From Acidimicrobiia bacterium (GTDB taxonomy: Bacteria; Actinomycetota; Acidimicrobiia; IMCC26256; JADLDD01), in assembly GCA_020846855.1 (NCBI GenBank), contig JADLDD010000013.1:1530-65529 (forward strand): DNA of 64,000 bases, read 5' to 3'. Shown piece by piece: positions 52,931 through 64,000 of this stretch. Made by a program: the position numbers and the translations under genes. The notes under the pieces were generated by a model that saw only the letters and a program-made list of their open reading frames with translations, was not told the DNA's origin and searched no databases. Positions within the stretch are counted from its first letter, which is position 1. Each line of letters opens with the position of its first letter.

Positions 52931-54112
52931 CTACGAGGCGGCGCCGAGGAGTACCGAGCGGTCGAGGTCGCCGACGTCGGGGACTCCGGTGAGGGAGAGG
53001 GCGACCTCCATCTCACGCCTCATGATGCGCAGCACCCTCCGCACCGCGGCTTCGCCCCCGCTCGCGACCGCCCACGCCCACGGGCGCCCCACCATGCACG
53101 CCCGGGCGCCCAGGGCCAGCATCTTCACGACGTCGAGGCCGCTGCGCACCCCGCCGTCGACGTACACCTCGACCCGGTCGCCCACCGCGTCGACGACGGC
53201 CGGGAGCGCCCGGACCGTCGACGGCGTGTCGTCGAGCTGGCGACCACCGTGGTTCGAGACCACCACGGCGTCGGCGCCGTGCCCGGCCGCCTCGCGGGCG
53301 TCGTCGGGGTCGAGGATCCCCTTCAGCACCAGCTTGCCGGTCCAGTGCTCTCGCACCCAGGCCAGGTCGGCCCAGGTCACGGTGGGATCGAACTGGGCGT
53401 CGACCCAGGTCTTGAAGGCCTCCGGGCTGCGGGCGCCGGGGACGGCGCGCTCGAGGTTCCCGAAGGTGTGCGGGCGGCCGTGGCGGCCCACCTCGACCAC
53501 CCAGCGGGGGTGGAGCGCCAGGTCGAGGGCCCGGCGCAGCTTGGGCAGCGTCCCGAGGGAGCGCGTCATCCCGTTGCGGACGTCGCGGTAGCGCTCGCCC
53601 ACGACGGCCAGGTCGACGGTGAGCACCAGGGTGTCGCACCCCACGGCCGCGGCCCGGGCCAGCAGGTCGGCGGTGTAGCCCCGGTCGCGCATCACGTAGA
53701 GCTGGAACCAGAACGGGGCCGCGGTGGCGTCGGCCACCTCCTCCAGGGAGCAGATGGACACCGTCGACTCGCAGAAGACGATCCCGGCCTCCTCGGCGGC
53801 CCGGGCCGCCTGCACCTCGGCCCGGGTGGCGAACATCCCGGCCAGGCCCACGGGGGCCAGGATGACGGGCAGCGCGATCGGGCGCCCGAGGACCTCGGTG
53901 CCCAGCCGCAGCGAACCGACGTCGCGCAGGACCCGCTGCCGCAGGCGGATGGTGTCGAGGTCGTCGACGTTGGCGCGCAGCGTCGACTCCTCGAAGGCCC
54001 CGCCGTCGAGGTAGTCGAAGAGCTGGCGGGGCAGCCGGCGCCGGGCCCGTTCGCGGTAGTCGCGCACGGACGCGGGAGCCAGCCCGAGGGGGCGGTCGGG
54101 GAGCAGCCTCAT
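52931..54112 (-). CDS. lldD: FMN-dependent alpha-hydroxy acid dehydrogenase (L-lactate dehydrogenase type), 393 aa
   Basis: FDYLDGGA, LAPVG, WFQLY, LTVD, LKGI, SNHGGRQLD, DGGVRSG. Confidence 0.88.
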   Translation of the reverse strand: MRLLPDRPLGLAPASVRDYRERARRRLPRQLFDYLDGGAFEESTLRANVDDLDTIRLRQRVLRDVGSLRLGTEVLGRPIALPVILAPVGLAGMFATRAEVQAARAAEEAGIVFCESTVSICSLEEVADATAAPFWFQLYVMRDRGYTADLLARAAAVGCDTLVLTVDLAVVGERYRDVRNGMTRSLGTLPKLRRALDLALHPRWVVEVGRHGRPHTFGNLERAVPGARSPEAFKTWVDAQFDPTVTWADLAWVREHWTGKLVLKGILDPDDAREAAGHGADAVVVSNHGGRQLDDTPSTVRALPAVVDAVGDRVEVYVDGGVRSGLDVVKMLALGARACMVGRPWAWAVASGGEAAVRRVLRIMRREMEVALSLTGVPDVGDLDRSVLLGAAS

Positions 54113-54194
54113 GACCTCGAAGGTACCGCAGGCTTCGTCCGGTGGTCCGGGTGCCGGTCCGGGCGGCGGACGGAGGCCTCTCGGGCGGCGGGCG

Positions 54195-55856
54195 TCAGCG
54201 TTCCGGCGGCCAGGCGATGTCGGGGTCGCGGGTGTAGCCGTAGCCGGCGGCCACCCACCGGGCGGCGTGCCCGGCGACGCGGGTGCGGAAGTCGTCCCAG
54301 CGTCGCTCGCCCTGGTCGGTCCAGGCCACCTCCGCCACCGCGGGGAGGCGGGGCAGGAGGCGGGCGTCGATGTCGGCCCGGGTGGTGACCAACTCGGCCC
54401 ACAGCGGCGCCTCGACCCCGAGGACGCGCGACGGGCGGACTCCGGGCACGGCGGCGTCGGGGTCCCAGGAGTACGCGGTGCGGGTGTCGATGAGGCCGGC
54501 CCACGCGTTCCCGGGGGTGGAGGCGTCGTACTTCATGTCGAGGTAGACGCGGTTGGCCGGCGACATGATCAGCTCGGCCCCGCCTTCGGCGGCCCGGGCG
54601 GCGGGAGCGGGATCGATCCAGTGCTGGGCCACCACCGGGCCGGCCGAGAGGTCGGTGGTGCCGATCTCCTCCCACCCGACGGGGACCTTCCCCGCGGCGC
54701 GGACGGTCTCGAGGGCCCGGGCCACGAATCGGCGGTAGCCGTCGGGAGCCGTGGCCCTCGACTCGTCGCCGCCGATGTGGATCCACCGCCCGGGGGTGAG
54801 GCCGGCGAGCTCGCCGACCACCTCTCTCACGAAGGTGTAGGTGGAGTCGGCGTCGACGCACAGCGACGAGAACCCGACGGCCATCCCGGTGTAGGGCTCC
54901 GGGGCGCGGCCGTCGCAGTTGAGGTGCGGCAGGCTGACGAGCGCCGCGTTGGTGTGCCCGGGCATGTCGATCTCGGGTACGACCGTCACGCCGAGGCGGC
55001 GGGCGTGCTCGACGATCCGCCGGTAGTCGTCCTGGGTGAGGAAGCCGCCCGGCCCGCCGCCCACCTCGGTGCGGCTCCCGATCTCCGTCAGCTCGGGGTG
55101 GCCGGTCATGGCCAGGCGCCAGCCCTGGTCGTCGGTGAGGTGGAGGTGCAGGCGGTTGAGCTTGTACGCGGAGGCCAGTTCGGCGACGCGCTCGATGTCG
55201 TCGACGCCGAAGAAGTGGCGGGCCACGTCGAGCATCACGCCCCGCCACCGGTAGCGGGGGACGTCGCGGACGTCGCCGGCCGGGAGGGCCGGGGCCCCGC
55301 CCTCCGGGATCTCGTCGCGAGACGCCGGTAGGAGCTGGGCCAGCGTCTGCGCGCCCCACACGAAGCCGTCGTGGCCCCGGGCCCGCACCTCGACGCCGTC
55401 CGGCCGGATCGACAGGCGGTAGCCCTCGTCGCCGAGGTCGCGATCGGCATCCGCGGCGGTCAGGACGATCGACGGGCGGGCGGGGGATCCATCGTAGCCG
55501 TCGCCTCCTCCGGTGCCGCCGCTCTCGACGCCGCTCTCGGCGAGGCGGCGGCGGAGGAGCGAGGCGGCGTCGCCGGCCGGCGCGCCGCCCTCGACCTCCA
55601 CCGCGATTTCGCCGGCCAGTACGAAACTGCCGGTGGCGGCGCGCACCTCGGACGGCCGCGGGATGACGGCCTCGAAGGATCCGGTCAGCACCGGCCCAGC
55701 CCAGGTCGACGAGGTCGAGGGTCGATCGCGTTCCACCGGGTCGCCCCCCTTTCCGCCGCCGTCGTGGGTGTCGCCGGCGCCACCCCCCGAGCACGCGGCC
55801 ACGACGGACACGGCGAGGGCGACGAGCAGCGCGGCCGCCACCCGGCGCGCCGGCAC
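54195..55856 (-). CDS. GH20 beta-N-acetylhexosaminidase lipoprotein, 553 aa
   Basis: Lipobox VAAC; WRGVMLDVARHF, HLHLTDDQGWR, PEIDMPGH, HIGGDE, YLDMKY, GVEAPLWAE. Confidence 0.95.
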   Translation of the reverse strand: MPARRVAAALLVALAVSVVAACSGGGAGDTHDGGGKGGDPVERDRPSTSSTWAGPVLTGSFEAVIPRPSEVRAATGSFVLAGEIAVEVEGGAPAGDAASLLRRRLAESGVESGGTGGGDGYDGSPARPSIVLTAADADRDLGDEGYRLSIRPDGVEVRARGHDGFVWGAQTLAQLLPASRDEIPEGGAPALPAGDVRDVPRYRWRGVMLDVARHFFGVDDIERVAELASAYKLNRLHLHLTDDQGWRLAMTGHPELTEIGSRTEVGGGPGGFLTQDDYRRIVEHARRLGVTVVPEIDMPGHTNAALVSLPHLNCDGRAPEPYTGMAVGFSSLCVDADSTYTFVREVVGELAGLTPGRWIHIGGDESRATAPDGYRRFVARALETVRAAGKVPVGWEEIGTTDLSAGPVVAQHWIDPAPAARAAEGGAELIMSPANRVYLDMKYDASTPGNAWAGLIDTRTAYSWDPDAAVPGVRPSRVLGVEAPLWAELVTTRADIDARLLPRLPAVAEVAWTDQGERRWDDFRTRVAGHAARWVAAGYGYTRDPDIAWPPER

Positions 55857-56467: not shown

Positions 56468-57244
56468 ATGCCCGGCCTGCCCCCCTCCTTCGAGCCCGTC
56501 ACCCGGGGCCTGGGCGACGCCATCCAGTGGGCGCGGGAGGCCGCCGCCCGCTACGGAACGATCGGCCCGCGGCACCGGCGCGGGAGGCGGTTCGGACGGA
56601 TGGGCGAGGGGAGCGCGGTCTGCTTCCCGGTGGCTGCCCTCTTCGGCGAGGAGTACATCCACCTCGGGGAGAAGGTGGTGATCGGCCCGTACTGCAGCCT
56701 CTCGGCCGGGGTCGCACCGGGCCACGTCCCGCTCTCCGATCCCGTGGTGGTGATCGGCGACCGGACGGTCATCGGGAAGGGCAGCGGGGTGGTCGGGCAC
56801 CAGTCGATCCGGATCGGCTCCGACGTCTGGACCGGCCACCACGTCTACATCACCGACGCCAACCACGGCTACGAGGACGTCACGACCCCGATCGGTCTCC
56901 AGTTCTCCGGCCCCCGGCCGGTCACCATCGGCGACGGAACCTGGCTGGGCCACGGCGTGGTGGTGCTGCCCGGGGCGCGCGTCGGGCGCCACGTCGCCGT
57001 CGGCGCGGGTTCGGTGGTCACCGGTGAGCTACCCGACTTCAGCGTCGCGGTCGGCAACCCGGCCCGGGTGATCCGCCGCTACGACCCGCGGGCGGGGTGG
57101 CAACGCGTCGACGCCGACCGTCCGGCCGGACCGGACCCGACCCGCGGCCGGGCGCCCGATCCCGCCGACCGGCCGGCGGCCGTCCCGGCCGACGCCGGGG
57201 CCCCGCCCCTGGGCTTCCTTCAGCCCCCGGCCGGCGACGGGTAG
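56468..57244 (+). CDS. Left-handed beta-helix O-acyltransferase (maltose/galactoside acetyltransferase-like), 258 aa
   Basis: VYITDANHGY, VTIGDGTWLG, VGAGSVV, VAVGNPARVIR. Confidence 0.9.
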   Translation: MPGLPPSFEPVTRGLGDAIQWAREAAARYGTIGPRHRRGRRFGRMGEGSAVCFPVAALFGEEYIHLGEKVVIGPYCSLSAGVAPGHVPLSDPVVVIGDRTVIGKGSGVVGHQSIRIGSDVWTGHHVYITDANHGYEDVTTPIGLQFSGPRPVTIGDGTWLGHGVVVLPGARVGRHVAVGAGSVVTGELPDFSVAVGNPARVIRRYDPRAGWQRVDADRPAGPDPTRGRAPDPADRPAAVPADAGAPPLGFLQPPAGDG

Positions 57245-58929
57245 TCGGGCGGCGCCGACCCCGCCGGGATCTCGTCGAAGAGCGCCGTCGACCGGGAGCG
57301 GTCGAAGAGCCCGGGCACGTGCGTGGGCCACTTCCCCGGGCGGTACCGGCGGCCGTGGTCGGCGTACTGGTACATCCCCTTGCCGACGTCGCCGATCTCG
57401 CTCGGCCCGGTGGCCTCGGGGTCCCACCAGATCAGGGTGACGTCGTCGCTGCCGAAGCGGTCGATCCCCGGCCAGATCCCGTGCCGGCCCCGCGACACGG
57501 TCGGCGTGGTCGGTCCGCCGCCGGTCACCGGGTAGCGGAACAGGCCGTCGCGGAAGGTCTCCGGCGTCAGCCGGGGGCCGGCGAGGTGGATGCCGGTGTA
57601 GAGGATCTGCGGTTCGGGGTAGATCACCGAGTAGACGTTGCTGGGCGGCTTCTCGCCGAACTGCCACTTGTACACCCGGTACGACTCGCCGTTCTCGGGG
57701 GCGCTGCGGGCCGCCGGCAGCGACAGGCCGAACGCGTGGGCCCACTGGCGCTGGTCGTACTGTCGGGCGAAGACCGTGGTGTCGGCGAGGACGCTCGGCC
57801 CGATGATCCACTCGGGGAAGTACTCCTGGGCCGTGGCCTCCTTGGTGAAGTAGATCGGCATCAGCGGGTCGCCGGTGAAGATCACGGTGGTCACGCGGGC
57901 GGCCTTGAGCTTGCTGATGACGGTCCGGGCGTTCTCCTGCGCCTTGGCGATGTCGAGGAAGTACTCCACGTCGGTGGCCAGCTTCACGCCGCGGGACGCG
58001 AGCTGGTCGCGGAGGGTCTCGAACAGGTCGCGCTGCCGGCCGTCGGGGGTGCCGTAGTGGAGCAGCCCGTAGACCCGCTCGCGGCGGCGGAAGGCGGGGT
58101 CGCCGGCGTGCTCGGCCCGGCCCTTGAAGAGCTTGCCGATCATCTCGGCCGCCATGGTCGCGGCCTGCTCGGGCGACGGTCCGCTGCCCCAGAGGTAGGG
58201 CTGGCGTTCGGCCGAGAAGCGCTCGGGCGTGGCCAGCGAGCAGCCGCCGAGGCAGAGGATGTGCTCGGCGGCGAGCTGGTCGGCGAACTCGGGCGCCTGG
58301 CTCGGGCCGCCGAACACCGCGAACGGCTTGGGCTTCATGCTGGCGATCGCGAGGGCGTCGGCCTTGGCCTTGGCGGCGTCGCGGGCGGACCCGGTGGCCT
58401 CGTACCAGCGCAGCCTCACCTTGCGGCCGTAGGTCTCGTAGTGGGCGGCGAAGTACTCGCCGTAGCGCTCGCTCGTCTCCTTGATGGCGTCGAGGCCCAG
58501 CTCGGCCCCCGCCCCCGAGATCACCGCGGCCTGGAGCGGGTCGAGCTCGGGGGGCATGAGGTAGGCGACGACCTCGATGGTGTCGGCGGTGACGCCGGGG
58601 GCGGTGGCGCCGCCGTTGTCGCCGGTGAACGGCTCGACGCACGGCGGCGCGTACACGGCCGGGACCTTGATCCGGCCGGTCTCGGTGTCGCACCCGGGGC
58701 CGAAGTCGACGGTGCGGCCGAGCAGCTTCGCCTTGGCGGGGGTCATCGGACCCGACCGGATCAGCTCCTTGGCGGTGGCGGTGCCCTCCGGGCCCGAACC
58801 CGATCCCCCGTCGTCGCCGCGGCCCACCAGCGCGACGGCCGCCACGGCGACCACGGCAACGAGCGCGACGGGTGCATAGCGGCGCAGGGCCGCCGGGCGG
58901 CCCCGGCTGCTCTTGCGGGTGGGTTCCAT
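57220..58929 (-). CDS. ABC transporter substrate-binding protein (type I / LivJ-like fold), 569 aa
   Basis: ATG 58929 after GGAGG; N-terminal TM anchor; DNGGATAPGVTADTI, YETYGRKV, VTTVIF, ATAQEYFPEW, AGPRLTPETF; same operon as the Liv-type ATPases. Confidence 0.8.
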   Translation of the reverse strand: MEPTRKSSRGRPAALRRYAPVALVAVVAVAAVALVGRGDDGGSGSGPEGTATAKELIRSGPMTPAKAKLLGRTVDFGPGCDTETGRIKVPAVYAPPCVEPFTGDNGGATAPGVTADTIEVVAYLMPPELDPLQAAVISGAGAELGLDAIKETSERYGEYFAAHYETYGRKVRLRWYEATGSARDAAKAKADALAIASMKPKPFAVFGGPSQAPEFADQLAAEHILCLGGCSLATPERFSAERQPYLWGSGPSPEQAATMAAEMIGKLFKGRAEHAGDPAFRRRERVYGLLHYGTPDGRQRDLFETLRDQLASRGVKLATDVEYFLDIAKAQENARTVISKLKAARVTTVIFTGDPLMPIYFTKEATAQEYFPEWIIGPSVLADTTVFARQYDQRQWAHAFGLSLPAARSAPENGESYRVYKWQFGEKPPSNVYSVIYPEPQILYTGIHLAGPRLTPETFRDGLFRYPVTGGGPTTPTVSRGRHGIWPGIDRFGSDDVTLIWWDPEATGPSEIGDVGKGMYQYADHGRRYRPGKWPTHVPGLFDRSRSTALFDEIPAGSAPPDYPSPAGG

Positions 58930-58976
58930 GGGCCCGATACCTCCCGTGGTGAGTCGTCGTGGCGCCGGTGCCCGTG

Positions 58977-60695
58977 TCAGCCGCGGTCGGGTGGTGGGTA
59001 GTCGGGCGGAGCCGAGCCGGGCGGGGGCTCGTCGAAGACCGTGACCGACGTCGCGGGGTCGAAGAGCCCCGGGATCCGGTCGGGGATCCGGCCCCACCGG
59101 TAGCGGCGACCCCGGTCGGCGTACCGGTACATCCCCCGGCCCTCTTCGCCCATCTCGTTGGGACCGGTGGCGTCGGGGTCCCACCAGATGACGGTGATGT
59201 CGTCGCTGCCGAAGAGGTCGACGCCGGGCCAGATGCCGTGCCGGCCCCTCGACAGCAGCGGTGTCGTCGGGCCGCCTCCGGTGACCGGGTACCGGAAGAG
59301 GCCGTCGCGGAACGTCTCGGGGGTCAGCTTCGGCCCCGCCAGGTGGATCCCGGTGAACAGGATCTCGGGATCGGAGTAGACCATCGCGTACAGGTTGCTC
59401 GGCGGTTCGGTGCCGAACTGCCACTTGTAGACGCGGTAGGCCTCACCGTGCTCGGGGGTGAGGCGCGCCGCCGGCTCCGACAGGCCGAACGCGTGGGCCC
59501 ACTGGCGCTGGTCGTACTGGCGGCCGAAGACGGTGGTGTCGACGTACACGGTGGGTCCGATGATCCACTCGGGGAAGTACCCCTGGGCCGTGGCCTCCTT
59601 GGTGAAGTAGATCGGCATCAGCGGGTCGCCGTAGAAGATCACGGTGGTGACGCCGGCGGCCTTGAGCTTGCTGATGGCCGTGCGGGCGTTCTCCTGCGCC
59701 CGGGGGACGTCGAGGAAGTACTCGACGTCGGTGGTCAGCTTCACGCCGCGGTCGGCGAGGTCGTCGCGCAGGGTCTCGAACAGCTTGCGCTGGCGCCCGT
59801 CGGGCGAGTCGAGGTGCAGCACGCCGTAGACCCGCTCGCGGCTGCGGAAGGCGGGGTCGCCGGCGTGCTCGGCCCGGCCCCTGAAGAGCTTGCCGATCAT
59901 CTCGGCCGCCAGCCGCGCGCCCTGCTCGGGTGATGGCCCGTTGCCCCAGAGGTAGGGCTGGCGTTCGGCGGAGAAGCGCTCGGGGGTGGCCAGCGAGCAG
60001 CCGCCGAGGCAGAGGATCTTCTCGGCCGCGAGCTGGTCGGAGAACTCGGGGGCCTGGGTCGGGCCGCCGAGCACCGCGAAGGGCTTCGGGTCCATCCCGG
60101 CGATCGCCAGGGCGTCGGCCTTGGCCTTGGCGACGTCGCTCGGCGAGCCGGTGGCGGTGTAGAAGCGGAGGTTGACCTTGCGGCCGTAGGTCTCGAAGTG
60201 CTCGCCGAAGTACTCGGCGTAGCGCTCGTAGGTCTCCCGGAGGCCCTTGACGCCGAGGTCGGCGCCGGTCTTGGAGAGCAGGGCCGTCTGGAGCGGGTCG
60301 AGCTCGGGGGGCATGAGGTAGGCGACGACCTCGATGGTGTCGGCGGTTACGCCGGGGGCGGTGGCGCCGCCGTTGTCGCCGGTGAACGGCTCGACGCACG
60401 GCGGCGCGTACACCGCCGGGACCTTGACCCGGCCGGTCTCGGTGTCGCAGCCGGGCCCGAAGTCGACGGTCCGGCGGAGGAGCTTCGCCTTGGCGGGGGT
60501 CATCGGACCGGAGCGGATCAGGGCGTCGCCGGTGGCGGCGGCCTTCGGGGCCCGTCCCGAGTCCGACTTCCCGCCGTCGTCCCGGCCGACCACGGCTATC
60601 ACCGCCACCGCGATCACGACGACGACCGCGATGGGGCCGTAGCGGCGCAGGGCCCGGGATCGTGGCCCCTTGCTCCCCTTGCGGGTCGGCTCCAT
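58977..60695 (-). CDS. ABC transporter substrate-binding protein, paralog of 57220..58929, 572 aa
   Basis: Start re-called to ATG 60695 (MEPTRKGSKG) after GGAGG; colinear and highly similar to the downstream copy. Confidence 0.8.
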   Translation of the reverse strand: MEPTRKGSKGPRSRALRRYGPIAVVVVIAVAVIAVVGRDDGGKSDSGRAPKAAATGDALIRSGPMTPAKAKLLRRTVDFGPGCDTETGRVKVPAVYAPPCVEPFTGDNGGATAPGVTADTIEVVAYLMPPELDPLQTALLSKTGADLGVKGLRETYERYAEYFGEHFETYGRKVNLRFYTATGSPSDVAKAKADALAIAGMDPKPFAVLGGPTQAPEFSDQLAAEKILCLGGCSLATPERFSAERQPYLWGNGPSPEQGARLAAEMIGKLFRGRAEHAGDPAFRSRERVYGVLHLDSPDGRQRKLFETLRDDLADRGVKLTTDVEYFLDVPRAQENARTAISKLKAAGVTTVIFYGDPLMPIYFTKEATAQGYFPEWIIGPTVYVDTTVFGRQYDQRQWAHAFGLSEPAARLTPEHGEAYRVYKWQFGTEPPSNLYAMVYSDPEILFTGIHLAGPKLTPETFRDGLFRYPVTGGGPTTPLLSRGRHGIWPGVDLFGSDDITVIWWDPDATGPNEMGEEGRGMYRYADRGRRYRWGRIPDRIPGLFDPATSVTVFDEPPPGSAPPDYPPPDRG

Positions 60696-60706
60696 GCGGG
60701 TCCCTC

Positions 60707-63700
60707 CTAGTGGCTCGGATCGGGGGTGGTGGGTGCGTGCGACGGGCCGGACCGGTCGATCGCGGCGGCCGAGGTGCCGAGGTACGACTCGACCACGCGG
60801 GGGTCGTTGACGACGTCTTGGGGGGCGCCGATCGCGACGACCCGGCCCAGGTCGAGCGCGACGATGCGGTCGGCGAGGCCCCGGAGCAGGGCGATGTCGT
60901 GCTCGATGAGCAGCAGGCTGGCCCCGAGCTCGTCGCGGACCCGCCGGAGCAGCGGCCCGAGCGCCTCGGCCTCGCGCTGGGCGATACCGCTCGACGGCTC
61001 GTCGAGCAGCAGCACCGAGGGCCGGTGGGCCAGCGAGCAGGCCAGGTCGACGATGCGGCGGCTGCCCGTCGAGAGCTCGCGCACGAACTTGTCGCGGAAG
61101 GCCCCGAGGCCGAGCAGCTCCACCAGCTCGTCGACGCGGGCGGTGACGGCGCGCTCGGAGTGGGCGACCGCCGGGAGGTGCAGGGCCGCGGCCACCGGGT
61201 CGCGCACCTCGACGTGGCGGTCGAGGGCCAGGGCGATCGTCTCGGCGACGGTCAGGCTCGGGAACAGGCGCCCGTCCTGGAACGAGCGCCCGAGGCCCAG
61301 GCGGGCGCGCCGGGCCGCCGCCATCTCGGTGATGTCGTCGACCTCGCCGTCCTCGGCCCGCATCAGGACTCGGCCGGCGTCGGGGGCCAGGAAGCCGCTG
61401 ACGACGTCGAAGAGGGTTGTCTTGCCCGCCCCGTTGGGTCCGATGAAGCCGAGGATCTCGCCGGCCCGCACGTCGAAGCCCACGCCGTCGAGGGCCGCGA
61501 CGCCACCGAACCGCTTGCTCAGGTCGCGCACCTCCAGGCGGAGCTCGGGATCGGGCGCCCGGGTCCCGTTCCCGCCCGGAGCCGGCGGGACGTCGTCGGG
61601 CGCCGCCGCGGGCACCGGTAACGGCGGGACGTGGGTCGCGGTCGCGCCGTTGGCGGACGACCCCGTCGCGCCCGCCGCGCGCCCGATGCCGCGGGCCGCA
61701 CCCTCGAGGAACACCGAGCGCAGGACGTCGGGCCGCTCCATGAGCTCGGCCGTCGGCCCGTGGAAGCGGATCTCGCCCTTCTCCATGAAGTACGCCGTCT
61801 CGGCCACCTGGAGGGCGACGTTCACCGACTGCTCGACGAGCACGATGGTCGTCCCCGCCCGGCGCAGCTCCTCCACGATCCCCAGGAGCCGGCCCACCAC
61901 GGCCGGCGCCAGCCCGAGCGAGAGCTCGTCGATCATCAGGAGACGGGGGCGCTCCACGAAGGCCATCCCAAGTGTCAACATCTGCTGCTGGCCGCCCGAC
62001 AGGTTCCCGGCCGGCTCGTCGAGGCGCCCGGCCAGCACCGGGAACGTGTCGAGGACCCGCGCCGCCCGTTCGCGGGCCTCGCCGCGGTCGTGGCGGTGCA
62101 GCCAGCCGGCGAGGGCCAGGTTCTCCCGGACCGTCAGCGACGGGAACACGCCCTGGCCGCCCGGGACCTGGGTGACGCCCCGGCCGGCCGTCTCGTCGGG
62201 CGGCGTGTAGGTCATGTCGCGCCCGTCGAACACCACCGCGCCGGCGCTGGCCTCCACCAGCCCGGAGATCGCCTTGAGCAGTGTCGACTTCCCCGCCCCG
62301 TTCGTGCCGAGCAGCGCGACGATCTCGCCCTCGTCGACCTCGAAGTCGACGCCGAACAGGACCTGCACGCCGTCGTAGTGGACGTCGAGTCCGCGCACCA
62401 GGAGCAGCTTCACCCGCCCCTGGCGGCGCTCGTAGAGCACCTCCGACTGGGCCGCGGCCGACGTCCACACCTTCTTGATGTCGGCGTTCACCTCGCTGCC
62501 CGCGGAGGCGATCAGGAACGCGCCGACGAGGAAGATCGGCACCATCGCCAGCAGGCCGGTGCGGATGCCGTAGTGGTCGGCGAGGCTCCCGATGACGGGC
62601 AGGGCGATCAGCCCGGGCAGGATCCACAGGGCGGCGACCGAGAACCCGAACGACCGCACCTTGGGCGGAACCGCCAGCGACAACGCCGCGAAGATCCCGG
62701 GCACGAGGACCACGAGCACGCCCGAGATGACCACGTTCATGGCCACGGCGAGGGCGAGGTTCGGCGTCAGCGCGAAGAGGGTCCACGCGCCGGCGACGAC
62801 GATCGCCACGCCGGCCAGGAAGCGCAGGACCAGCGCGGCGTCGCGGGTGACCAGCCGGGTGGCGATCGGTACCCCGACCAGCAGGCCGACGAGCTGGGCC
62901 GGTTCGGCCCCGGCGGCGATGAACCCCCGGGCTCGCTCGTCGAGACCGAAGATCTCCGAGTAGTACAGCGACACGAGGCTCAGCAGGCCGACGAAGGCCA
63001 CGGCGAGGAACGGGAGCGCGTAGAAGATCCGCCGCAGGGTGCCCACGTTCCACACGATGCGCCACGACTCCGCCAGGGACGGAGCGACGTCCTCGGTGGC
63101 GACGGTCTCGGCCGCGGCGCCCATGGCCGCCCGCTCGAAGCGGCCGCGCACGGGTTCGCGCAGGCGAGCCGCGAGCACGACCAGCACCATCGTGGGGATG
63201 GAGAAGATGAGGAACGGCCAGCGCCACCCGACGTAGAAGGCGATGATCCCGGCCAGGAGGGGCCCCACGAAGGCACCCACCGACGCCGCGGCGCGGTGGA
63301 CCGCGTAGACCTTGGTGCGAACCGGGATGTCGTAGTAGTCGGCGAGCAGCGAGTTGTGGGTGGGCATGATCACCCCACCGGCCAGCCCCGAACCGGCCCG
63401 GGCGACGGTGAGCACCCAGACCACCGGCGCGAGGCCGGTGAGGACCGAGAACAGGCCCCATCCCACCGCCCCTACGACGGCCACGGGGACCCGTCGGACC
63501 CGGTCGGCGTAGAAGCCGATCGGCACCGAGAGCAGCAGTGCGACCACGCTGGCCAGGGCGACGACGGCGAGGATGCCCCCCTTGTCGAGCCCGAAGTGGT
63601 CCTGGATCTCCGGCAGGAGCACGCCGAACGCGGTCTGGTCGAGTTGGTCGACGGCGTAGAGCCCGAAGAGGATCGCCAGCGGGTAGAGCGGCGCACCGCC

Positions 63701-63799
63701 GGTGACCGAGTGGATCCAACCCCGGACCCGCCCGCGAGGCGGTTCGAGGGCGCCTTCGGCCGGGCCGCTCCCGGGCGCCGCCGCCGCCGTGGTGCTCAC
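60707..63799 (-). CDS. Fusion protein: MFS permease + LivF-like ATPase + LivG-like ATPase, 1030 aa
   Basis: About 12 TMs with MFS motif A (GFYADRVRR, GSLADHYGIR). NBD1: GTNGAGKST, LSGGQQQ, LMIDE. NBD2: GPNGAGKTT, LSTGSRR, LLLDE, IEHD. Single uninterrupted ORF. Confidence 0.9.
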   Translation of the reverse strand: MSTTAAAAPGSGPAEGALEPPRGRVRGWIHSVTGGAPLYPLAILFGLYAVDQLDQTAFGVLLPEIQDHFGLDKGGILAVVALASVVALLLSVPIGFYADRVRRVPVAVVGAVGWGLFSVLTGLAPVVWVLTVARAGSGLAGGVIMPTHNSLLADYYDIPVRTKVYAVHRAAASVGAFVGPLLAGIIAFYVGWRWPFLIFSIPTMVLVVLAARLREPVRGRFERAAMGAAAETVATEDVAPSLAESWRIVWNVGTLRRIFYALPFLAVAFVGLLSLVSLYYSEIFGLDERARGFIAAGAEPAQLVGLLVGVPIATRLVTRDAALVLRFLAGVAIVVAGAWTLFALTPNLALAVAMNVVISGVLVVLVPGIFAALSLAVPPKVRSFGFSVAALWILPGLIALPVIGSLADHYGIRTGLLAMVPIFLVGAFLIASAGSEVNADIKKVWTSAAAQSEVLYERRQGRVKLLLVRGLDVHYDGVQVLFGVDFEVDEGEIVALLGTNGAGKSTLLKAISGLVEASAGAVVFDGRDMTYTPPDETAGRGVTQVPGGQGVFPSLTVRENLALAGWLHRHDRGEARERAARVLDTFPVLAGRLDEPAGNLSGGQQQMLTLGMAFVERPRLLMIDELSLGLAPAVVGRLLGIVEELRRAGTTIVLVEQSVNVALQVAETAYFMEKGEIRFHGPTAELMERPDVLRSVFLEGAARGIGRAAGATGSSANGATATHVPPLPVPAAAPDDVPPAPGGNGTRAPDPELRLEVRDLSKRFGGVAALDGVGFDVRAGEILGFIGPNGAGKTTLFDVVSGFLAPDAGRVLMRAEDGEVDDITEMAAARRARLGLGRSFQDGRLFPSLTVAETIALALDRHVEVRDPVAAALHLPAVAHSERAVTARVDELVELLGLGAFRDKFVRELSTGSRRIVDLACSLAHRPSVLLLDEPSSGIAQREAEALGPLLRRVRDELGASLLLIEHDIALLRGLADRIVALDLGRVVAIGAPQDVVNDPRVVESYLGTSAAAIDRSGPSHAPTTPDPSH

Positions 63800-64000
63800 C
63801 GGGCGGTCCCCGCGCCGGCCCCCGGAGCACCTGCCGCCGCGGGTGCGCCGGGGGCGCCGGCCTCCGGGTCGACGGTCCGGTCGGGGCCGGCGGCCGCGTC
63901 GGGTTCGGGGGTCCGGGAGTCGGCGACGAGGCTCGGCACGTGCACGCCACGGCGGCGCGCCACCCGGCGCAGCAGGCCGTCGCGGACGTCGAAGAGGGCC
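63796..64000 (-). CDS. C-terminal fragment of the upstream gene, probably a branched-chain-type (LivHM-like) ABC permease
   Basis: Frame from 63999 reads ALFDVRDGLLRRVARRRGVHVPSLVADS...TAR*, and its TGA overlaps the GTG at 63799. Permease identity is inferred from recall of similar tails and from context. Confidence 0.55.
   Translation of the reverse strand, partial: ALFDVRDGLLRRVARRRGVHVPSLVADSRTPEPDAAAGPDRTVDPEAGAPGAPAAAGAPGAGAGTAR

Follow-up and report, generated by a model that had tools for sequence, protein, structure and literature searches.

The fusion gene and its operon

The 64,000-nucleotide stretch of DNA analysed here, referred to as the window, belongs to contig JADLDD010000013.1 of an Acidimicrobiia bacterium (GCA_020846855.1), and close to its end lies a gene in which a major facilitator superfamily (MFS) carrier is joined to both ATPases of a Liv-type ATP-binding cassette (ABC) importer. 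This MFS-LivF-LivG fusion is real, widespread and uncharacterised. The gene (60707..63799, on the minus strand like all features below unless stated otherwise) is a single open reading frame of 1030 aa with a GTG start, and its three-part layout, which an earlier note had read from the letters, is borne out by Pfam and NCBIfam and agrees with an AlphaFold2 model. It begins with a Spinster-like MFS domain (aa 35-435, 62495..63697), recognized by Pfam MFS_1, by a family profile run against the PDB, by its 12 predicted transmembrane helices and by its conservation. A predicted linker helix (aa 434-459, 62423..62500; AlphaFold2), nearly fixed in length and with an invariant D440, leads from the last MFS helix into a LivF-type ATPase (aa 466-700, 61700..62404) with Walker A GTNGAGKST, signature LSGGQ, Walker B MIDE and a Q switch (VEQ). 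A disordered Ala/Pro/Gly linker of variable length follows (61544..61699; predicted local distance difference test (pLDDT) below 50 at aa 698-745), and then a LivG-type ATPase (aa 753-1012, 60764..61543) with Walker A GPNGAGKTT, the non-canonical signature LSTGS, Walker B LLDE, an H switch (IEHD) and a BCA_ABC_TP_C tail. The LSGGQ/VEQ and LSTGS/IEHD motifs reported earlier are present as described in the translated sequence, and the idea that VEQ is an inactivating change was rejected, since the Thermotoga LivF-type ATPase 1JI0 carries the same motif.

Pfam places MFS_1 at aa 44-391 (E 1.4e-42; PF07690, 146 bits), ABC_tran twice and BCA_ABC_TP_C at aa 986-1011. The best NCBIfam stretches are LivF-type at aa 468-699 and LivG-type at aa 755-1009, and none of the NCBIfam Liv equivalog cut-offs is reached. 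The AlphaFold2 model of the whole chain (mean pLDDT 89; predicted TM-score (pTM) 0.76) has 12 long helices at aa 39-432, and its ATPase pair superposes on the tandem ATPase of DppABCD (TM-score 0.71 by target length). The matches listed from a fold search with the whole model are tandem ATPases and ABCB-type exporters, and none of them has an MFS.

The genes on either side complete an importer. Upstream is a fused LivH-LivM permease gene (726 aa), of which the window holds the 3' end (63796..64000); completed from the genome, it runs over 63796-65976 in window coordinates, and its product has two BPD_transp_2 (PF02653) stretches (E 1.3e-52). Its TGA overlaps the GTG start of the fusion (GTGA), which agrees with the coupling to a probable upstream permease proposed earlier and identifies that permease as a LivH-LivM fusion. 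Two substrate-binding proteins had also been expected after the fusion, and both are there, each with Peripla_BP_6 (PF13458) above the gathering cut-off. Binding protein 1 (572 aa, 58977..60695) has an N-terminal hydrophobic anchor and a Liv-type (type I periplasmic-binding) fold; its gene starts 11 nt past the fusion stop, which is overlapped by a GGAGG. Binding protein 2 (569 aa, 57220..58929) is a recent duplicate, 80% identical in the core and sister to protein 1 in the tree. The binding-protein model (pLDDT 95) matches Liv-type folds. A scan of 56900-64000 for sigma-70 promoters and terminators found none. An alpha/beta hydrolase of the haloalkane-dehalogenase family precedes LivH-LivM at the contig end, and the genome (83% complete) has one copy of this MFS family and four or five further Liv-type systems without an MFS.

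Read support over the junctions, suggested as a check in the earlier note, was found when contigs of four of the 24 listed sequencing runs were aligned to the window. A contig of run X2 spans 60384-64000 with 17 substitutions and no gaps, and one of run X6 spans 60477-62644, both junctions included, with 15 substitutions and no gaps; these are DNA runs from different studies. A contig of RNA library X16 (62153-63031) also crosses the MFS-LivF junction; the RNA-library contigs cover the operon in part and are not proof of transcription, level or strand. At least half of the sampled words were present in 14 runs, 12 of which are labelled, all as sludge or wastewater. An assembly or frameshift artefact was therefore rejected, because contigs of other studies bridge the junctions without gaps and the architecture is common to all 120 of the top homologues listed. 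The fusion is one genuine, conserved gene.

Distribution and two natural losses

PF07690 and PF00005 occur together in 120/120 of the top homologues listed (65-100% identity, window protein included), 119 of which are 975-1080 aa long and one of which is partial, and nearly all named relatives are Acidimicrobiia; this answers the call for a search on the MFS+ABC+ABC architecture and its taxonomic range. The MFS-domain query matches 52 of 201 sampled genomes of the class, and the MFS profile 29 of 301 genomes of the phylum, further families included, with up to six copies per genome. Databases automatically label such proteins as ATPase/MFS composites. Among 94 loci compared (a few of which are the same region twice, e.g., L016/L041 and L024/L042), four kinds of arrangement were seen: LivHM, MFS-F-G and binding protein as in the window; MFS-F with LivHM-G; a single LivH-LivM-MFS-F-G chain; and forms without the MFS. 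Wherever it is fused, the MFS sits at the N-terminus of LivF, even where LivG is on the permease. LivHM was called in 48 and a binding protein in 47 of the 50 close full-fusion loci, the missing calls being due to contig ends, one frameshifted copy and one gene-calling miss; the two loci without a LivHM call are a 3.3-kb contig and the frameshifted copy. The best 150 representatives at 50% clustering comprise 69 MFS-F or MFS-F-G proteins, 45 with the MFS alone (some of which may be cut by contig ends), 27 partial and 9 other. Single chains of LivH, LivM, MFS, LivF and LivG, 1694 and 1767 aa long, are found at L071:5778-10862 and from L129:7920 onward, in two separate tree branches.

The cultured actinomycete Embleya sp. 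NBC_00888 (NZ_CP108785.1, L155:8746-15216) encodes MFS-LivF, LivHM-LivG and a binding protein. Its operon is flanked, by eye, by TetR-like and hydrolase-like genes on one side and a large glycosidase-like gene on the other, on a nearly unannotated 5.7-Mb linear record filed as a plasmid. In a distant branch of the fusion (L075, L078, L085, L086, L128-L130), the surrounding operon is conserved and also encodes a MoxR-like ATPase, a large membrane protein and a number of secreted proteins; two proteins tested from this operon had no Pfam match, and these loci showed no binding protein of the family seen in the window. At L088:4682-16282, two operons without the MFS (binding protein, LivHM, LivF-LivG) stand tail to tail.

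Every part of this conserved architecture is under purifying selection, and two reciprocal losses divide it into its halves. The first loss is that of the MFS. In family f15, a 1220-aa LivH-LivM-LivF-LivG chain is matched over its whole length (62-100%) in 12 of 25 genomes, and all ten loci examined combine this chain with a binding protein and no MFS, in the same surroundings as in the window (downstream acyltransferase in 9/10, upstream hydrolase in 6/10). Trees were built with FastTree on all rows (101 permeases among them) and with IQ-TREE on 40 and 34 chosen rows. The f15 permease groups with the window's clade (Shimodaira-Hasegawa-like approximate likelihood ratio test 98) inside MFS-bearing lineages, and the f15 lineage has therefore lost its MFS. 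A search of five of these genomes returned only other MFS paralogues, at no more than 430 bits vs. 550-590 for orthologues. The chains keep all catalytic motifs, and the ratio of nonsynonymous to synonymous substitution rates (dN/dS; here and below from Nei-Gojobori counts, with dS compressed by high GC) is 0.10-0.40 across their parts. The LivF tree, however, does not join the f15 clade to the window's clade and so conflicts with the permease tree; this fits a faster LivF rate, but is still a discrepancy.

The second loss is that of the ABC importer. Among 12 genomes of family f20, four have a stand-alone MFS of 430-465 aa, two an MFS cut by a contig end and four the fusion; one genus carries the full operon, and two genera carry only the MFS and a binding protein at the same chromosomal place. 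The stand-alone MFS ends in a remnant of the linker helix and is directly followed by the binding-protein gene in 5/6 genomes, and no LivHM or ATPase remnant was seen in the reduced loci. It is sister to the fused MFS at 100/99, and the binding proteins are sisters at 0.99. In the reduced genera the MFS has a dN/dS of 0.14-0.19 in five pairs and of 0.33 in a further pair that is more distant, and the binding protein one of 0.23-0.29 in five pairs; in the fused sister genus the values are 0.14-0.16 and 0.18-0.21. Searches of four reduced genomes (61-97% complete) gave no orthologue of the permease or of the ATPases; the best matches there (39-47% and 57-58%) are at the level of paralogues in the fused genome. 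An apparent second case of an MFS with a binding protein (L139) is cut by a contig end and was excluded from the counts.

Spinster kinship, the tether and the ligand

The PDB entry matched best by the family profile is 6E8J (E 1.8e-46), which leads by 18 orders of magnitude (runner-up 5e-28; human SPNS1 6.4e-28 and SPNS2 2e-19); the single window sequence ranks it eighth, after EfpA and other efflux proteins. We take 6E8J to be the bacterial Spinster HnSpns, going by its source organism and by residue numbering that matches the part of PMC9440201 covered here. Bacterial Spinster homologues are also mentioned in part of PMC3924187. D41, R122, and D142 of HnSpns align with D54, R134, and D154 of the fusion's MFS domain, whereas R42 and E129, described in the part of PMC9440201 covered as the intracellular proton switch, correspond to Q55 and G141; the D41/R122 half of the proton network is kept and the R42/E129 half is not. 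In 51 close homologues position 55 is R or K in 42, as against Q in the window protein, and position 141 is variable (R 19, K 13, E 10, G 4). In contrast to Spns carriers, the domain also has D51 as an additional conserved acid, shows conservation of H148, H168, and R169, is joined to ABC ATPases and is co-encoded with binding proteins. The cavity of the predicted domain is lined by D51, D54, R134, H148, H168, and R169. On its sequence the domain thus resembles Spns carriers, but it does not have their complete canonical proton network and is not placed as a canonical member.

It has the hallmarks of an MFS carrier, with 12 predicted transmembrane helices, motif A and a charge relay. The motif-A network (D99, R100, R103, D154) is intact, with R103 and D154 invariant and D99 and R100 at least 90% conserved in 71 sequences. 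Mean conservation is 0.70-0.73 for the MFS vs. 0.80-0.87 for the ATPases, 86 MFS positions are at least 95% conserved in the 120 homologues, and among full systems, 14 close pairs give an MFS dN/dS of 0.04-0.22. A degenerate MFS domain was rejected on these conserved positions and dN/dS values. The earlier note had allowed that the MFS might be both dispensable and degenerate; it has proved dispensable in some lineages, but where present it is not degenerate.

The joint between MFS and LivF differs from the other joints of the family. The distance from the invariant D440 to G498 of the LivF P-loop is 59 residues in 130 of 150 aligned rows and 59-61 in 149, and this near-fixed length holds down to an overall identity of 33%. 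In the same alignment the length of the LivF-LivG linker ranges over 30-87 residues, and the LivM-LivF joints of chains without the MFS are variable Pro/Ala stretches. LivF dN/dS is 0.02-0.20 in 14 pairs with the MFS vs. 0.13-0.35 in six pairs without it, the pairs not being independent. Together, the near-fixed tether and the LivF rate difference suggest contact between MFS and LivF; they do not demonstrate allosteric coupling. A possible contact residue is R527, whose conservation is 0.85 with the MFS and which is found in 0/10 and 3/11 members of two groups without it. The effective depth of the inter-domain alignment (about 66) is too shallow for coevolution. A complex prediction of the MFS domain with binding protein 1 (46-row alignments, no control pairs folded) scored 0.00 in both runs and is uninformative either way; the putative pairing of binding protein and MFS is suggested by their genomic co-retention.

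As for the ligand, binders of amino acids, aromatic acids, urea and fatty acids score alike among the fold matches of the binding protein, with no class singled out; the protein is 10-16% identical to the matches listed, and its profile found no solved relative by sequence. In the 50 close loci an acyl-CoA ligase occurs in 20, a haloalkane-dehalogenase-family hydrolase in 16 and a TetR gene in 27, and thioesterases, enoyl-CoA hydratases, and amidohydrolases in six to eight each; a representative of the ligases passes the FadD3 cut-off. Together with the Spinster kinship, these neighbouring lipid and acyl genes weakly suggest a lipophilic acid, or an amide or ester of one, as the ligand. The lipid-handling complex suggested in the earlier note thereby gains indirect support, from the same kinship and from the adjacent acyl-CoA ligase, thioesterase and hydrolase genes. 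The part of 10.64898/2026.05.09.724020 covered describes conserved Spns elements as able to support transport in opposing modes, uptake being suggested by lipophilic compounds.

Other neighbours touch the operon less directly. Three stand-alone MFS homologues (L135, L136, L143) lie near a gene resembling a ferritin-fold diiron enzyme, two of them also near a fatty-acyl reductase/acyltransferase-like gene (by eye), hinting at lipid handling. In the window, a hexapeptide-repeat acyltransferase (56468-57244, plus strand) converges on the operon and overlaps the end of binding protein 2 by 25 nt; it is retained in 24/50 close loci and 9/10 loci without the MFS, probably for positional reasons. Downstream (52931-55856), the genes for a GH20 hexosaminidase-like lipoprotein and for an FMN-dependent 2-hydroxy-acid dehydrogenase were not seen to recur in the loci of relatives.

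Proposed mechanism and known systems

Since relatives have lost either half and kept the other, the fusion is likely to be two self-sufficient transporters bolted together, and since the losses are reciprocal (ABC without MFS, MFS without ABC), it is likely that the ATPases drive LivH-LivM and that the MFS is a carrier in its own right. The reading that we tentatively prefer, at somewhat less than an even chance, is that the operon encodes a full Liv-type importer whose tethered MFS gives the same ligand, probably a lipophilic acid, a second way in that needs no ATP. The binding protein would capture this ligand, and the ATPase pair would close as a heterodimer, with a consensus site formed by the LivG Walker motifs and H switch together with the LivF LSGGQ and with a degenerate second site, as judged from motifs and the established head-to-tail geometry of ABC ATPases. 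The heterodimer would drive LivH-LivM as in other HAAT importers, and the MFS would run a rocker-switch cycle of its own and would probably be a facilitator or a carrier with weak proton coupling, because the protein is without the R42/E129 pair of HnSpns. The stiff tether would hold MFS and ABC at 1:1 and let the state of the ATPases gate the MFS. The MFS route would be used when ligand is plentiful, being cheap, and the ATP route when it is scarce, with the MFS probably gated against leaking what the pump has concentrated. The strongest form of this proposal, a dual-energised importer in which one binding protein feeds both the ABC permease and an MFS gated by the ATPase cycle through a rigid helix, we consider unlikely as it stands.

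Several observations weigh against a second entry route. R527 alone stands out in both groups without the MFS, which is thin for allosteric coupling. The reduced f20 genomes are only 61-97% complete, and one copy (L107) has two frameshifts. Their orphan binding protein may serve paralogous systems in trans, because these genomes hold several paralogous LivHM-FG systems, and its stem branch is long (0.44 vs. 0.10), so that it has changed after the loss. Stand-alone MFS relatives without a nearby binding protein exist (L068, L135-L137, L143). The neighbour counts come from related, non-independent loci, and of these neighbours the hydrolase alone is present at the locus of the window itself. Finally, characterized bacterial Spinsters are treated mainly as efflux pumps in the covered parts of PMC9440201 and 10.64898/2026.05.09.724020.

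This last point leads to the alternative that survives best, which is possible if doubtful: the ABC would import a conjugate or lipophilic acid, and the tethered MFS would expel the hydrolysis product or excess as an overflow or detoxifying valve. An efflux role is presumed for HnSpns and shown for MsSpns (in part of PMC9440201 and of 10.64898/2026.05.09.724020), hydrolases, amidohydrolases, and thioesterases recur beside the operon, and some stand-alone MFS homologues have no binding protein. However, such import coupled to export fails to explain two separate f20 deletions that spared the MFS together with the binding protein, both under selection, and the proton switch E129 of HnSpns and its partner R42 are here G141 and Q55, the former at a variable position.

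Rather less credit can be given to a fusion of convenience, in which the parts would be joined for co-expression and membrane anchoring of the ATPases, without mechanical coupling and perhaps with different substrates. The family does fuse its parts freely (LivH-LivM, LivF-LivG, LivHM-G, LivHM-F-G and the five-part chain of L071 and L129), and either half can be lost, but convenience would not account for an MFS-LivF joint that is near-fixed to 33% identity where the other joints are variable Pro/Ala linkers, nor for LivF evolving faster where the MFS is gone. A role of the MFS as a sensor or scaffold, transporting little or nothing and regulating the importer by binding ligand, is very unlikely: selection on the MFS is unchanged after loss of the ATPases and its motif-A gating network is invariant or nearly so, despite the predicted rigid tether, the variable proton-switch positions and the regulatory fusions to transporters described as common in part of PMC10710835. 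The hybrid primary/secondary machine of the earlier note stands as far as the fusion is real, conserved and not degenerate, but ATPases that power the MFS directly as the translocation path are highly improbable, the covalent stiff link and the pTM of 0.76 notwithstanding, given the LivH-LivM gene in 48/50 close loci and the persistence of the ATPases with LivHM alone in f15 and of the MFS without ATPases in f20.

ABC and MFS transporters are the textbook contrast of primary and secondary transport, and here they are found in one polypeptide. The natural half-deletions provide ready comparisons between the full system, the ABC alone and the MFS with a binding protein; with these and the cultured Embleya sp. 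NBC_00888, the gating of a secondary carrier by ATPases and the feeding of an MFS by a binding protein are therefore testable. Should the dual-energised importer prove true, operons of MFS and binding protein would represent a binding-protein-fed MFS, a class of secondary transport found in no paper searched. The system may also point to uptake of fatty, steroid-ring or aromatic acids by sludge, soil and water actinobacteria.

Among known systems, the closest to the ABC half is the HAAT family (LivJ/K-LivHMGF, UrtABCDE), which we take to be TC 3.A.1.4. The Liv-type binding protein, two permease units and both ATPase types with intact Walker A and B are all present here, and the two share Peripla_BP_6 binding proteins, two BPD_transp_2 halves, LivF/LivG-type ATPases, the Q switch of LivF and a single operon. 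They differ in that LivH-LivM form one chain and LivF-LivG another, with a whole MFS before LivF, and in binding proteins of about 570 aa that are membrane-anchored and have no solved relative by sequence. Cooperation between a secondary carrier and an extracytoplasmic binding partner also has precedents, as far as the sources covered describe them, in TRAP transporters and in Rv1410-LprG. LprG, however, is described in those sources as a lipoprotein of lipid export rather than a binding protein of the Liv type. The membrane parts of TRAP transporters are not known to belong to the MFS. The earlier note knew of no characterised example of the fusion, and no study of an MFS-ABC ATPase fusion was found in the literature searched, from which the likeliest survey (PubMed 30657446; Willson, 2019) and its supplements were missing; nor do the covered parts of PMC8154325, PMC10710835, and PMC3924187 mention one. 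Known MFS fusions, such as LplT with acyltransferase/acyl-CoA synthetase and those with CBS, cNMP, PAS, or UspA domains, likewise carry a C-terminal cytoplasmic domain on an MFS (PMC8154325 and PMC10710835, each in part), but in the present fusion the added part is the motor of a second, separate transporter.

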